A stretch of DNA of 64,000 nucleotides from Alphaproteobacteria bacterium (GCA_965214705.1 OZ243972.1:2144001-2208000), one strand, 5' to 3'; positions 7,995 through 40,373 are shown, numbered from the stretch's first letter. Translations and numbers: made by a program. The notes: generated by a model from the sequence alone, not told the origin.

Positions 7995-8431
7995 AGAGAA
8001 GTTACTCAAGAGGGGCGGAGAACCGCGCCTCGCCGTTGCTTGCAGCAGCCAAGATGCCGCCGTGAAGCGCTGGCGGCTTATCGACAACTTCACGGCTTGT
8101 TGGAACGCTTACCACCCCGTGCGCGGCACGAGCGAATCCTCACAGCGGTTGAAACGACGAGAGTACGTTTCACATCGAATTGAAGTGGTGCCTATTTGGT
8201 ATCTGGAGACTGAGACCGAAGCCGCATGAGGAAAGAAGCTGATCCATAATGTGCTGCCAAATAACAATTATTTCAATCGTACTACAGTGCTTGGAACGGT
8301 GATACGCTTTGCGCCGGTAACCATGGTGCGGTGCACGGGGCGGGCGGGGGGAGGCAGGCTGCGGGGATGCAGTGCACAGACCATCACCTTGTCGAAACAT
8401 CCGGGCTGGCACCGCCCCGGAGGCGCGGCTA

Positions 8432-9031
8432 ATGGCCGGTCGTTCCTCCATCGAGCGCTTGCCGCGGCCGATTCAGGCGCTGGTGCACGAGGCGATCGCC
8501 GAGGGCGCCACCATCGACGAGATCGTCCGGCTCATCCGCGCGCACGGCGGCACCTGCTCGCGTTCGGCCGTCGTCCGCTTCGCCAAGAGGGTGCGCGAGA
8601 GGCTGCGGCGCTGGAGCGAGGACAAGGGGCTCACCGATTTCTGGCTCAAGTCGCAAGGCGAGCGGCCCGAGGGCGGAACCGGGCGGCTCGCGCTCGAGAC
8701 GCTCCGGTCTCTCGCCCTGCGCGCTGCCATCGCCCTCGACCGCGAAGAGGAACCGCCAACCGCCGACCAGATTGCCCCGCTCGCGCTCGTCATGCACCGC
8801 ATCGAAGGCGCCGGCAAGAGCGATGCGGCGCGCGAGAGCGCCGTTGCTCGCATGGACGGCGGGCGAAACAAGACGCCGAAGGGCGGCGGCGGGCTGTCGC
8901 CCGAGGCCGTCGCCATCATCCGCGCCGAGGTCGAGGGCGACTGGCGCGAATGGACCCCGGAGACACACGACGAAGGCGCGCACCGGCTCGATATCGACAG
9001 CCATCCGATGCGCCGCTCCGGTCCGTCATGA
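8432..9031 (+). CDS. DUF3486 / Mu gp27-like protein
   Basis: MAGRSSIERLP...ATIDEI...SRSAVVRFAKR and C-terminal GLSPEAVAIIRAEV; GGAGG RBS. Confidence 0.75.
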   Translation: MAGRSSIERLPRPIQALVHEAIAEGATIDEIVRLIRAHGGTCSRSAVVRFAKRVRERLRRWSEDKGLTDFWLKSQGERPEGGTGRLALETLRSLALRAAIALDREEEPPTADQIAPLALVMHRIEGAGKSDAARESAVARMDGGRNKTPKGGGGLSPEAVAIIRAEVEGDWREWTPETHDEGAHRLDIDSHPMRRSGPS

Positions 9032-9060
9032 GCCACCTTGGGCCGCTTGCCTGGACCACC

Positions 9061-9110
9061 TTGGGCCACCTTGGGCCGCTTTGGGCCGGAATGGGCCGGA
9101 ATAGGCCGCC
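9061..9110 (+). repeat. five tandem 10-mers (ttgggccacc, ttgggccgct, ttgggccgga, atgggccgga, ataggccgcc)
   Basis: Directly visible; conserved at 23334-23383 and 40179-40228. Confidence 0.9.
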
Positions 9111-9260
9111 TTAAAACACTCTTCCGAAATTTGCCGGGATTCTTCACCTGTCTCGGGTGGGCGGCTGGAGACGGACTCGGCCATCGACTAGCATCCGGGC
9201 CGGGCCGGGCGGCGAGTGTCGGCCTGGGCGGAGCGATGACGAGCAGGCGAGGAGACCGGC

Positions 9261-10037
9261 ATGGGCCGTTCGAAGATACTGTTGGCGGGCGAATCGTGGG
9301 TTACGGCCGCAACGCACATCAAGGGCTTCGATCAGTTCCCCACGGTCACCTTCCATCGCGGCGCCGACGCGCTGGCCGAGGCGCTGGCGGACAGCGATTT
9401 CGCGCTCACCTACATGCCGGCCCACGAAGCGCAGACGCACTTTCCGTCGACCCTCGCCGGGCTTTGGGAATACGACGCCGTCATTCTCAGCGACATCGGC
9501 GCCAACACCCTGCTCCTGCATCCCGATACGTGGATCGAGAGCAAGCCCACGCCGAACCGGCTCAAGCTCATCCGCGACTACGTGGGCGAAGGCCGTGGCC
9601 TGATGATGGTCGGCGGCTATTACAGCTTCCAGGGCATCAATGCCGGCGCCCGCTACCGGGGAACGCCGGTCGAGGAGGTGCTGCCCGTGACGATCCTGCC
9701 CTGGGACGATCGCGTCGAAGTGCCGGAAGGGTTCCGAGCGGAGGTCAAGGGGCCTGCCGCTCATCCTATCCTCGCGGGCCTCGGCACCGAGTGGCCGATA
9801 CTGCTGGGCTACAACGAGGTCGCGCTGAAGGAGAAGGCGGAGCTTCTGCTGAAGGTCCCGGACGACGCGGGCGGGCATCCCCTGCTGGCGACGGGCGCCT
9901 ACGGCAAGGGCCGCGCCATCACCTGGACCTCGGACATCGGCCCGCACTGGTGCCCGCCCGGCTTCGTCTCGTGGGAGGGCTACGGCCGCCTGTGGCAGCA
10001 GTGCCTCGCGTGGCTGACGCAGGCCTCGGATCGCTGA
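9261..10037 (+). CDS. glutamine amidotransferase-like protein (GATase1_like/DUF1355)
   Basis: KILLAGESW...HIKGFDQF, ILSDIGANTLLL, MVGGYYSFQG, WTSDIGPHW. Confidence 0.85.
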   Translation: MGRSKILLAGESWVTAATHIKGFDQFPTVTFHRGADALAEALADSDFALTYMPAHEAQTHFPSTLAGLWEYDAVILSDIGANTLLLHPDTWIESKPTPNRLKLIRDYVGEGRGLMMVGGYYSFQGINAGARYRGTPVEEVLPVTILPWDDRVEVPEGFRAEVKGPAAHPILAGLGTEWPILLGYNEVALKEKAELLLKVPDDAGGHPLLATGAYGKGRAITWTSDIGPHWCPPGFVSWEGYGRLWQQCLAWLTQASDR

Positions 10038-10097
10038 TCGCGCGCGCCGGCCTCCAGTCGGTATCCCAGGCTGCTGCGCGGGTGCGGCCTCCGGCCC

Positions 10098-38001: not shown

Positions 38002-39642
38002 CTACATGCCCATGCCACCCATGTCCGGCATACCGGCGCCGGCGGCCGCGTCGTCCTTCTTCTCGGGCTTCTCGGCAACCATGGCTTCGGTGGTGACCAG
38101 CAGGCCGGCGACCGAGGCCGCGTCCTGAAGTGCAGTCCGCACCACCTTCGCGGGGTCGATGATGCCCGCCTTCACCATGTCGACGTACTCGCCGTTCTGC
38201 GCGTCGAAACCCTGGGTCGCGCTTTTCTGCTCCAGGAGCTTGCCGATCACGAGCGAGCCGTCCTCGCCCGCGTTCTCGACGATCAGCCGGGCCGGCGACT
38301 TGAGCGACTGGCGCACGATGTTGACGCCCACGTTCTGGTCGTCGTTCGCACCCTTGACCTTGTCCAGCGCACGGCCGGCATAGAGCAGCGCCACGCCGCC
38401 GCCGGGGACGATGCCTTCCTCGACCGCGGCACGGGTGGAGTTGAGAGCGTCTTCGACCATGTCCTTGCTCTCCTTCACCTCGACCTCGGTGGCCCCGCCG
38501 ACCCTGATCACCGCGACGCCGCCGGCGAGCTTCGCCAGCCGCTCCTGCAGCTTCTCGCGATCATAGTCGGAGGTGGTCTCCTCGATCTGCGCCCGGATCT
38601 GGTTGCAGCGCCCGGTGATGTCCCCCTTCTTGCCGGCGCCGCCGACGATGGTGGACTCCTCCTTGGTGATCGAGACCCGCTTGGCGGTGCCGAGCATGTC
38701 GACCGTAACGTTCTCGAGCTTGATGCCGAGGTCCTCGCTCACCACCTGGCCGCCGGTGAGGATGGAAATGTCCTCGAGCATGGCCTTGCGGCGATCGCCG
38801 AAGCCCGGCGCCTTCACCGCCGCGACCTTGAGGCCGCCGCGCAGCTTGTTGACGACCAGCGTCGCCAGCGCCTCACCCTCGACCTCCTCAGCGATGATGA
38901 GCAACGGCCTGGACGACTGCACCACCGACTCGAGGATCGGGATCATGGCCTGCATGTTGGAGAGCTTCTTCTCATGCAGGAGGATGAAGGGATCCTCCAG
39001 CTCGCAGGTCATCTTGTCGGCATTGGTGATGAAGTAGGGCGACTGGTAACCGCGGTCGAACTGCATGCCCTCGACCACGTCGAGCTCGGTTTCGAGACCC
39101 TTGGCCTCCTCCACCGTGATCACGCCTTCCTTGCCGACCTTCTGCATCGCCTCGGCGATCATGTCGCCGACCGCGCGCTGGTTGTTGGCGGAGATGGAGC
39201 CGACCTGGGCGATCTCCTCGTCGGTCTGTACCCGCTTGGAGCGCTTGCCGATCTCGGTCACCACGGCGCCCACAGCGAGGTCGATACCGCGCTTGAGGTC
39301 CATCGGGTTCATCCCGGCGGCGACCGCCTTGGAGCCCTCGCGCACGATCGATTGGGCCAGCACCGTCGCCGTGGTGGTGCCGTCGCCGGCCTCGTCATTG
39401 GTCTTGCTCGCGACCTCGCGCACCATCTGCGCGCCCATGTTCTCGAACTTGTCGGTGAGCTCGATCTCCTTGGCGACCGTCACACCGTCCTTGGTGATGC
39501 GGGGTGCGCCGAACGACTTGTCGAGCACGACGTTGCGGCCCTTGGGCCCCAGCGTCACGCCGACCGCGCTCGCGAGCGTGTCCACGCCCCTGAGCAGGCG
39601 TGTCCGCGCATCGGCGGAAAACTTTACTTCCTTCGCTGCCAT
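38002..39642 (-). CDS. groEL: chaperonin GroEL
   Basis: [21 protein letters not shown] tail. Confidence 0.99.
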
Positions 39643-39675
39643 GTTGCTTTTCCTTCCTGACTGCGAGCGGCGCGC

Positions 39676-39990
39676 CTACGCGGCCTTCTTCGACTTCTTG
39701 CCGGTCTCGACGATGGCCATGATGTCGGACTCCTTCATGAACAGGAGCTCGTCACCGTCGAGGGTCACTTCGTTGCCGGACCACTTGCCGAACAGCACGC
39801 GGTCGCCCGGCTTCACGTCCAGCGGATGCAGCGTCCCGTCATCGCCTCGGGTGCCAGGGCCCACGGCCACGATCTCGCCTTCCTGCGGCTTCTCCTGGGC
39901 CGTATCGGGAATGATGATGCCGCCGGCGGTCTTGGTGTCCTCGCCAATCCGGCGAACCACGACCCTGTCGTGCAGCGGTCGAAACTTCAT
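39676..39990 (-). CDS. groES: co-chaperonin GroES
   Basis: [19 protein letters not shown]. Confidence 0.98.
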
Positions 39991-40033
39991 TGGTTCCTCC
40001 ACGTTCGTCTGTAAGATCGTCTGATAGCAGGTG

Positions 40034-40060
40034 TTAGCACTCGCTAGAAGCGAGTGCTAA
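40034..40060. promoter_or_regulatory. CIRCE element (HrcA operator)
   Basis: Exact TTAGCACTC-N9-GAGTGCTAA upstream of groES. Confidence 0.97.
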
Positions 40061-40122
40061 CACCTCTCGCGCGGCGAATCAAGCACCTGTTTGCAATCGG
40101 GTTCGCCCGCATGTCGCGCCGC

Positions 40123-40373
40123 GCCGCCTGCCCGAGACAGGTGAAGAATCCCGGCAAGTTCCGAAAGTAAGGTTTTAAGGCGGCCTATTCCGGCCTAATC
40201 CGGCCCAAAGTGGCCCAAGGTAGCCCAAGATGGTCCGGGGCGAGCGGCCCAAGGTGGCCCACTGCGGACCGGAGCGGTGCATCCCAGCCCGCATTTCTCA
40301 ACAGGGTCATGGACGGGGCGACACATCCGCCGAGTCTGCCTTTCCCCGTCCGCCGCGTACACCGCACTATGGT
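40123..40373 (-). repeat. dispersed repeat copy 3 (empty allele, no DUF3486 gene)
   Basis: Reverse complement aligns to the left arm of copy 1 joined directly to its right arm, including the tandem array and gccgggattcttcacctgtctcggg. Confidence 0.88.

Follow-up and report, generated by a model that had tools for sequence, protein, structure and literature searches.

Within a 64,000-nucleotide stretch of DNA from an uncultured alphaproteobacterium (the window, by which the whole stretch is meant), three related copies of a small unit occur, assembled from a conserved left arm, a gene for a protein resembling the small terminase subunit (TerS) gp27 of Mu-like phages, and a tandem array of short repeats. 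Copy 1 (8320-9145, + strand) is complete, with a promoter arm, a leader open reading frame (ORF), the intact gene and the array; copy 2 (22967-23418, + strand) has lost the equivalent of 8404-8777, and copy 3 (40373-40143, - strand) is composed of arm and array without the gene. These places and the intact, deleted and gene-less states had been reported in a first-pass annotation of the window, and sequence comparison confirmed them: identity between copies 1 and 2 is 93.5% in an alignment of 371 nt and 85.7% in the left arm (91 nt), and for copy 3 it is 87% in 161 nt. The joint of copy 2 (8403->8778) recurs in one contig of sequencing run X2, and four sequencing runs of unspecified kind contain the window stretch itself. 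The window genome amounts to 7.9 Mb in three contigs or replicons, and its source organism is known only from metagenome-assembled genomes (MAGs).

In copy 1, the left arm occupies 8320..8369 (+) and follows the 36-copy logo described below, with the right half and centre of a dyad at 8320-8331, a -10-like CAGGCT at 8355-8360 (A at -11 being 8356 and T at -7 being 8360) and an ATG at 8367-8369, the putative +1. At this apparently leaderless ATG starts a leader ORF of 21 codons (MQCTDHHLVETSG..., 8367..8432, +), which ends in a TAATG overlapping the start of the gp27-like gene (type A, 199 aa, 8432..9031, +), and the two would be translationally coupled through it. The type-A array (9029..9116, +; period 10 in Tandem Repeats Finder, TRF) is formed by about eight phased 10-bp units yTTGGGCCrc at 9029-9109, the final ones being GGAAT(G/A)GGCC, and by a TTAAAA box at 9111-9116. 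The right flank common to the window copies follows (9117..9165, +), with CCGGGATTCTTC at 9134-9145 and, beyond it, CACCTGTCTCGGG, present in copies 1 and 3 only. Copy 2 retains the promoter (22967..23016, +, ATG 23014-23016), a gene remnant (23053..23304, +) in which tblastn recognizes residues 117-198 at 86.6% amino acid identity, the helix-turn-helix (HTH) half being lost, and the type-A array with its flank (23301..23418, +, TTAAAA 23384-23389, CCGGGATTCTTC 23407-23418). In copy 3, a promoter of the ACCATAGTGCGGTGTAC variant (40324..40373, -, ATG 40326-40324) and a type-A array with TTAAAA box and CCGGGATTCTTC (40143..40263, -) are separated by an interval without a gene; empty copies retain a homologous leader beginning M-x-C.

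The gene had been described as an orphan of the DUF3486 family, and this holds. The window protein matches PF11985 (Phage_Mu_Gp27, DUF3486) over residues 7-169 of 199 with an E-value of 8.7e-20 and 72.2 bits against a cut-off of 28, and phrog_426 (terminase small subunit) with an E-value of 2.1e-21. Eight paralogues in the genome score 22-98 bits against PF11985, and all nine genes are orphans among housekeeping genes, none directly upstream of terL, whereas the real prophages of the genus show the order gp27-terL-portal. The gp27-like genes give dN/dS values of 0.13-0.66 in comparisons with positional orthologues and of 0.31-0.63 between paralogues, by which they are under purifying but relaxed selection. 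An AlphaFold2 model (56-sequence alignment, mean predicted local distance difference test, pLDDT, 68) gives an N-terminal HTH with pLDDT >90, whose recognition helix reads SRSAVVRF, followed by long helices, and the C-terminal helix (residues 152-169, GLSPEAVAxIRAxVEG) is nearly invariant in 56 homologues. Outside the genus, a phage collection returned one weak match only, the DUF3486 protein of Chromohalobacter phage YPCBV-1 (39% identity over 45% of the query), PADLOC and NCBIfam scans gave nothing useful, and DUF3486 proteins hardly figure in the literature searched, in which one paper names the family.

The search for a terminase in trans that had been recommended with the first-pass annotation found a single conserved gene for the large subunit (TerL). 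In predicted complexes of this TerL with the window protein, helix 152-169 packs on the N-terminal part of TerL with an interface score (ipSAE) of 0.69 against 0.00 for the best of three controls; of 157 solved complexes, 116 attain the mark applied to this score, as do 2 of 215 mismatched pairs, and in these runs contact agreement was at least 27% and partner pLDDT at least 52. TerS homology and a contact with TerL are likely.

The left arm, its putative activator and the dispersed family

With the A of the conserved ATG taken as +1 and the conserved positions counted outside the searched motif, the logo of 36 arms displays A at -11 in 36/36 copies, T at -7 in 35/36, C at -12 in 33/36, and CCCCGG from -53 to -48. 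The arm has a -10 hexamer CAnnAT at the canonical distance, no -35, and a 16-bp dyad, CCGGACCA|TGGTGCGG, centred at -43.5 relative to the putative +1. At Mu Pm, the site bound by the Mor dimer is a 16-bp element with its centre at -43.5 (PMC4390567), and four Mu late promoters are described as having -10 hexamers and no -35 hexamers (PMC2582627). From its anatomy, the left arm is very probably a 50-bp promoter of the Mu Mor/C type. Because it is conserved where a sigma70 -10 element needs it, the arm is to be regarded as a promoter and not as a transposon end, and it is common to the terL, portal, head-tail and DUF5675 genes elsewhere in the genome, which the first-pass annotation had missed. 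No Shine-Dalgarno sequence precedes the conserved ATG, and the reading frame continues from it into the gp27 domain in six genes (type B1 below) or into the coupled leader in type A; from this we infer a leaderless mRNA starting at the A of the ATG. Readings of the arm as a sigma-54 or extracytoplasmic function (ECF) promoter were dropped by eye, the spacing being unsuitable.

A candidate activator is encoded at C3:2900698-2901045 by a gene for a 115-aa protein with a C-terminal HTH, which scores 28 bits with Pfam Mor (cut-off 24.9) and matches phrog_836 (late transcriptional activator) with an E-value of 6.7e-14; the Pfam model recognized it when applied to the ORF, but not in a six-frame scan of the genome. 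The gene closes a regulatory module in the order S24-repressor-like gene (opposite strand), 95-aa ORF, Gam, GemA and Mor, in which no Mu A or B genes are present, and it is a single-copy orthologue (75-100% identity) in 15/21 genus genomes. Two genuine Mu-like prophages of the genus each have, immediately behind mor, a perfect palindrome (CATCGGACCATGGTCCGATG or CACGGGACCATGGTCCCGTG), with the core GGACCATGGTCC as in the arm dyad and a -10 at the same spacing. The system resembles the Mu promoters Pm, Plys, PI, PP and Pmom in its 16-bp dyad at -43.5, in a -10 without -35 and in a small Mor-family activator after gemA; it differs from them in that one activator type apparently serves all units, in the transcripts being presumably leaderless, and in that copies of the promoter stand at about 48 places, mostly not before phage genes. 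A compact and well-defined Mor-type promoter, presumably leaderless, is gained whatever the function of the cassettes proves to be.

The first-pass annotation had suspected a high-copy dispersed family rather than the local decay of one prophage, and the genome-wide search bears this out. The 17-nt core of the left arm occurs 19+19 times in the genome at up to one mismatch (reversed control pattern 0) and 48 times at up to two. About 48 units have the arm, the -10-like hexamer and the ATG at the right spacing, a count that is the analyst's reading and takes in a few arms with three mismatches and the variant arm of terL, and about 40 arrays are spread over all three replicons; with 8.7% estimated contamination in an assembly of 7.9 Mb, against 2.8-6.3 Mb in relatives, merged strains could inflate these numbers. 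Type A units (TGGGCC arrays) comprise one full, one 5'-deleted and 11 gene-less copies, type B units (ATCCC arrays) six B1 and one B2 gene-bearing and about 20 gene-less copies, and the others one distant gp27-like gene without an array, four phage-gene units and three unclassified. Unit density on the three replicons is 5.8, 4.6 and 2.8 per Mb. Arm and array are linked: all 12 strict type A arrays have a left arm on the same strand 153-732 nt upstream, and four of five strict type B arrays have an arm upstream on the same strand (reversed-genome control for strict arrays 0). At the locus of the fifth (C3:2889460-2891906), the arm is cut after about 20 nt by an inserted gene for a 651-aa DDE transposase and the array lies 2.4 kb downstream of the truncated arm, a cassette split by an insertion sequence (IS).

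The family belongs to most of one genus. The arm core is found 9-65 times in 15/18 other genus genomes and in 0/12 genomes of other genera, its reversed control giving 0 in every genus and outside genome scanned. When 185,579 species genomes were searched for an exact 21-nt sequence, at least 80 matches were listed, all titled uncultured Alphaproteobacteria or Rhodospirillales MAGs, and PF11985 genes number 1-15 per genome in 18/21 genus genomes. A second repeat family, a module of about 150 nt present in 49 copies (TCATTTCCCTCA.../TGACTnnnTCATTTCCCTCA.../TGACTnnnTCATTTCCCTCAAnCGCCGGGCG..., then GC-rich hairpins) and often in tandem, lies 140-300 nt upstream of four of the six B1 cassettes and also upstream of some A-type gene-less units; examples are the copies at this distance upstream of C1:124740, C1:2454641, C2:151042 and C3:2005297. 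Arms or arm variants at C1:3770861, C1:3935229, C1:1442120 and C3:1711314, one before a DUF849/BKACE-like gene and one before an unknown ORF (VATQRQIEANRRNARSSTGPKTEAGK…), have neither gp27 gene nor array and may be further members of the regulon.

The phased array and the history of the copies

The arrays share a unit of 10 bp (occasionally 11-13) with a common frame that begins with T and closes with C-R-C-Y; about 5-10 units per cassette are phased at one helical turn, the last two being of the GGAAT type and followed by an A/T box TAAAA[TT]. In B1 genes, the array falls within an extended 3' reading frame. The core of the unit, 4-5 nt long, is GGGCC in type A, ATCCC in B1 and B2, GTGCC in two cassettes (G002), GTCTC in one (G031) and GAGCC in one (G005), and it follows the protein clade and the recognition-helix residue that comes next to SRSAV on its C-terminal side: V with GGGCC, G with ATCCC, A with GTGCC, G with GTCTC and C with GAGCC. 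This co-variation is suggestive, as indirect evidence, of cognate pairing between protein and array. That the protein would bind its own downstream array, as had been supposed from the window, is still the best reading of the sequences, and the array is somewhat more probably than otherwise the cognate binding site of its TerS paralogue. Whatever the function, the specificity series GGGCC, ATCCC, GTGCC and GTCTC makes the protein and array pairs directly testable in vitro. At two loci (L005 and L006, C1:2967243 and C2:151042), a third phased repeat, CCGGGCATGA / GATACCCGGA, with a 10-bp period lies downstream of the stop codon of two B1 genes with an alternative C-terminus (…SHGMSEGMPGG).

Two known arrangements come close to this one. 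The pac sites of headful phages are phased short repeats beside or inside terS, and the cassettes resemble the terS-pac units of P22 (gene 3), SPP1 (gene 1), Sf6 (gene 1) and staphylococcal phages and S. aureus pathogenicity islands (SaPIs) in combining an HTH TerS with a nearby site of helix-phased motifs. Unlike those, the cassette is here detached from terL, exists in about nine gene-bearing and about 30 gene-less copies per genome and in at least four specificity types, and has its own promoter, predicted to depend on an activator, in each copy. The C-terminal part of TerS contacts the large terminase in those phages and is predicted to do so here; the role of TerS follows a published account (PMC7947584). 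The likeness to plasmid centromeres concerns an HTH or ribbon-helix-helix (RHH) protein together with its repeats. The type II/Ib centromeres bound by ParR or StbA have about ten direct repeats phased at 10-11 bp. The cassettes differ from these in having no motor protein, in their TerS family and in their chromosomal, multi-copy sites.

The full, deleted and empty forms, which had been interpreted as alleles, belong to a deletion series, as the comparison of the copies and of the loci upstream of groES, where copy 3 lies, demonstrates. Of 11 orthologous loci there, five contain the insert and six lack it, and about 100 nt more than in the window genome, among them the first ~20 codons of the gene, are found in three of the filled ones; since three relatives keep these ~100 nt, the empty form arose by stepwise internal deletion in place. 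A 12-mer at the junction of copy 3 had been considered a hybrid of the two repeats flanking the gene. The closest relative reads GCGCCGCTCCGG there, so the A in the window is a later G-to-A substitution and not a recombination scar. Two or three relatives show the three window copies in synteny with similar spacing, and a genome with an empty groES locus has copies 1 and 2 as well, which makes the copies old and copy 3 the youngest insertion. Gene-less units with B arrays have the M-x-C leader of types A and B2 and not the B1 N-terminus, and therefore derive from B2-like cassettes.

Mobility as a non-autonomous element, which had also been proposed, does not follow from these data. No inverted repeat pairs the two cassette ends, so the terminal inverted repeats (TIRs) that define miniature inverted-repeat transposable elements (MITEs) are absent; the alignment of flanks recommended in search of a target-site duplication (TSD) yielded no clean one at the only filled/empty comparison, the groES-upstream locus; and no transposase or recombinase is linked to the window copies or the paralogue loci. 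Phage-inducible chromosomal islands (PICIs) and SaPIs with their own TerS would be similar in that a TerS variant redirects the large terminase to its own site, as proposed here; in contrast to them, the cassettes have no integrase, replication or capsid-remodelling gene and form units of 0.25-1 kb that are not visibly excisable. With a single ORF per cassette and housekeeping neighbours, they do not have the integrase, replication and helper-interference genes of a PICI-like satellite.

Scattered phage genes and the case for packaging units

The first-pass annotation had noted no other phage genes. None is linked to the cassettes, and that part stands, but terL, a Mu-type portal, a capsid and the Mor-like activator are all present in trans and conserved in the genus. 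The arm, with the ATG at the same 48-nt spacing, precedes the portal gene, a cluster of head-protease, cement, capsid, tail-terminator, tape-measure and tail-tip genes, and a DUF5675 gene adjoining the regulatory module; a variant arm with the same 48-nt spacing precedes terL, whose putative leaderless ATG gives a TerL of 458 aa, database homologues having 454-458 aa. These phage-gene arms are found at the same places in two relatives. The portal (~430 aa) is single-copy in 16/21 genus genomes, the capsid gene is 88-99% identical in 17/21, TerL identity across genus genomes is 78-97%, and dN/dS of portal and TerL, compared with two relatives by the Nei-Gojobori method (rough in GC-rich DNA), is 0.14-0.25. 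Between the regulatory module and terL-portal, relatives have about 11 kb of ordinary host genes, and the head-tail cluster lies 0.1-1.7 Mb away from the other phage islands. No gp27 match stands beside the conserved terL, and Mu-transpos_C has six matches, in multi-copy ORFs of ~460-480 aa elsewhere in the genome. Three genomes (G011, G015, G016) are without matches for left arm, gp27-like gene, capsid, TerL and Mor-like protein, G015 having only a partial, divergent portal match; the three are kin, so that their joint absences are a co-occurrence, given here without a statistical test. In one genome (G013, L103:2075-3427) an RTX-repeat (HemolysinCabind) gene lies between terL and portal, and the portal arm is kept behind it.

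In its genes, this is the pattern of a domesticated element resembling a gene transfer agent (GTA), and 'domesticated phage module', one of the options offered at first, stays the best reading, with genus-conserved phage genes apparently sharing the promoter. Phage structural and packaging genes inherited under purifying selection, a defining trait of GTAs, are found here as single-copy orthologues in 15-17/21 genomes. As in RcGTA and its relatives, the phage-derived head, tail and packaging genes are inherited vertically under purifying selection, their loci are split and a common regulator would serve them; unlike in RcGTA-type agents, TerS retains its HTH, candidate start sites are scattered over the chromosome, and the ancestor was Mu-like with a lambda-like tail and not HK97-like. 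Known GTAs package DNA roughly at random, and their TerS has lost sequence recognition.

The interpretation we favour, at even chances, is that the cassettes are dispersed terS-pac-like units of a GTA-like domesticated Mu-like siphophage in an uncultured alphaproteobacterial genus. A Mor-like dimer would bind the 16-bp dyad at -43.5, and RNA polymerase would use the CAnnAT -10 and start at the A of the ATG, producing a leaderless mRNA for a TerS paralogue whose C-terminal helix would contact the N-terminal domain of the single conserved TerL, which has no terS neighbour of its own. The TerS oligomer would assemble around or along an array of the matching core type. Once the activator is made, TerS would thus load on the arrays and recruit TerL, and headful packaging of chromosomal DNA could begin from ~40 dispersed sites; deleted and empty copies, which keep promoter and array, would depend on intact same-type paralogues acting in trans. 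Packaging from the arrays, taken as a claim of its own, seems to us slightly improbable. A further step, that a GTA-like system chooses its cargo through tens of terS-pac cassettes of several orthogonal specificities on all replicons, one Mor-type switch and many defined start sites, is rather doubtful, and the cassettes may also be selfish passengers that spread as the first DNA packaged. If true, this would be a third route of chromosomal gene transfer, beside GTAs and lateral transduction, and its TerS/pac pairs would form a naturally orthogonal collection. For lateral transduction, a prophage has to be located, by chance, at one site. No description of an equivalent system was found in the open literature searched, subscription journals and supplements being outside this scope.

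Several observations weigh against the packaging interpretation. Since protein and array are neighbours on the DNA, co-inheritance could account for their co-variation, which concerns only about five types. The two real Mu-like prophages, in which gp27 is found directly before terL, have no comparable array by TRF or by a chain scan so strict that its control recovered only the copy 1 array among the three of the window; the array is accordingly not an inherited Mu pac site. Among solved structures, Foldseek gave no significant TerS match (best E-value 0.31, TerS entries ~1.7), the VIA fold search reached at best Z 7.1, on a helical hairpin, with none significant, and a profile search of PDB sequences with the window protein returned nothing; of the recommended profile and structure search, the family assignment (PF11985, phrog_426) thus succeeded and the fold match did not. 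Close cousins of the true partner could also pass the complex score. Array orientation shows no bias relative to replication (co-oriented 6/13 in type A and 15/27 in type B). The upstream half-site (CCGG) of the copy 1 dyad is gccggta here against CACCGG/CCCCGG in relatives; having lost it to unrelated low-GC sequence, copy 1 may be silent. The interpretation also offers no explanation for the spread of cassettes to new sites, nor for the almost perfect promoter reading into the array in empty copies, and with an organism known from MAGs alone, the start, the binding and the packaging are inferences.

Some of the same data could be explained by defence or by selfish spread. As an anti-phage decoy, the cassettes would be switched on by the Mor/C protein of an infecting phage acting on the host promoters, and the orphan TerS would divert the phage TerL to chromosomal arrays and lower the yield, much like a satellite-encoded TerS without the satellite. 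Cross-activation is plausible, with the dyad of the real prophages being closely related (GGACCATGGTCC) and at the same spacing and their Mor-like proteins 51% identical to the resident one, and the several specificity types with dN/dS up to 0.66 would fit an arms race. A pure decoy, however, has no need of the complete conserved terL, portal, head and tail set under the same promoter, and the scan for defence families returned none for either the window protein or the Mor-like protein and a single weak match, of 15 bits, for a B-type protein; we consider the decoy unlikely. The absence of TIRs, of a recognizable TSD and of a linked transposase speaks against a selfish or neutral mosaic repeat of the kind of MITEs or bacterial interspersed mosaic elements (BIMEs), in which arm and array would be ends or modules, the gene a passenger or mobilization factor, and the phage link a matter of insertion preference. 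The conserved arm positions are moreover promoter positions, the arm stands at fixed spacing before the actual start codons of the terL, portal, protease and gp27 genes in several species, and the genes are under purifying selection. The high copy number with many gene-less forms, the ~49-copy module near B1 copies and the locus filled in some relatives and empty in others are what a mosaic repeat would lead one to expect, and some paralogues are closer to one another (dS 0.07-0.10) than positional orthologues are (dS ~0.12), suggesting exchange between copies; on balance this explanation, too, is improbable.

Two other proposals concern the array itself. That an HTH protein coats it as ParR or StbA coat their centromeres, for autoregulation, roadblocking or DNA organization, is quite improbable: the repeats have the number and phasing typical of type II/Ib centromeres and the StbA DNA-binding domain figures among the weak Foldseek rows (7pc1, E 1.2, prob 0.51), but no partner NTPase stands beside any copy, the protein belongs to the TerS family with a C-terminal helix predicted to dock on TerL, and the cassettes share a promoter type, hence apparent co-regulation, with packaging genes. 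Very improbable indeed is a structured RNA, the unit being a gene for a small or cis-regulatory RNA and the array acting as RNA. A promoter does read into every array and the GGCC cores are self-complementary, but the window has no Rfam match, the B, D and E cores lack this property of the GGCC cores, and the 187-nt copy-3 transcript folds no better than shuffled sequences (z +0.65; 142 of 200 shuffles at least as well). A tRNA-like reading of the reverse strand was dropped after inspection by eye.

Neighbouring elements

One sponge metatranscriptome library contains relatives' copies (85-95% likeness) covering ~8311-9161 only; as assembled contigs of a multi-copy family, these matches carry no information on transcription or start site. 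Copy 3 is located just upstream of the heat-shock control region of groES, where a CIRCE-like inverted repeat, TTAGCACTC-N9-GAGTGCTAA, lies at 40030-40060 (-) of the window.

On the other side of copy 1, an IS110-family insertion sequence spans 6277-8012 (+), with a 479-aa transposase ORF at 6555-7994, and ten further copies with 99.7-100% identity occur across all three contigs. One of them ends at C3:1535608, 56 nt from a left arm at C3:1535664. The idea that the window element abuts the left arm of copy 1 was rejected, as the IS ends at 8012, ~300 nt away, and 8013-8319 is a low-GC stretch between the two, which takes the place of the upstream half-site of the copy 1 dyad. At this point of copy 1, one relative has another AT-rich sequence (…tattcccaat), and the same 12 nt abut the arm at C1:2728671 in the present genome, which suggests that some agent inserts precisely 5' of ACCATGG.

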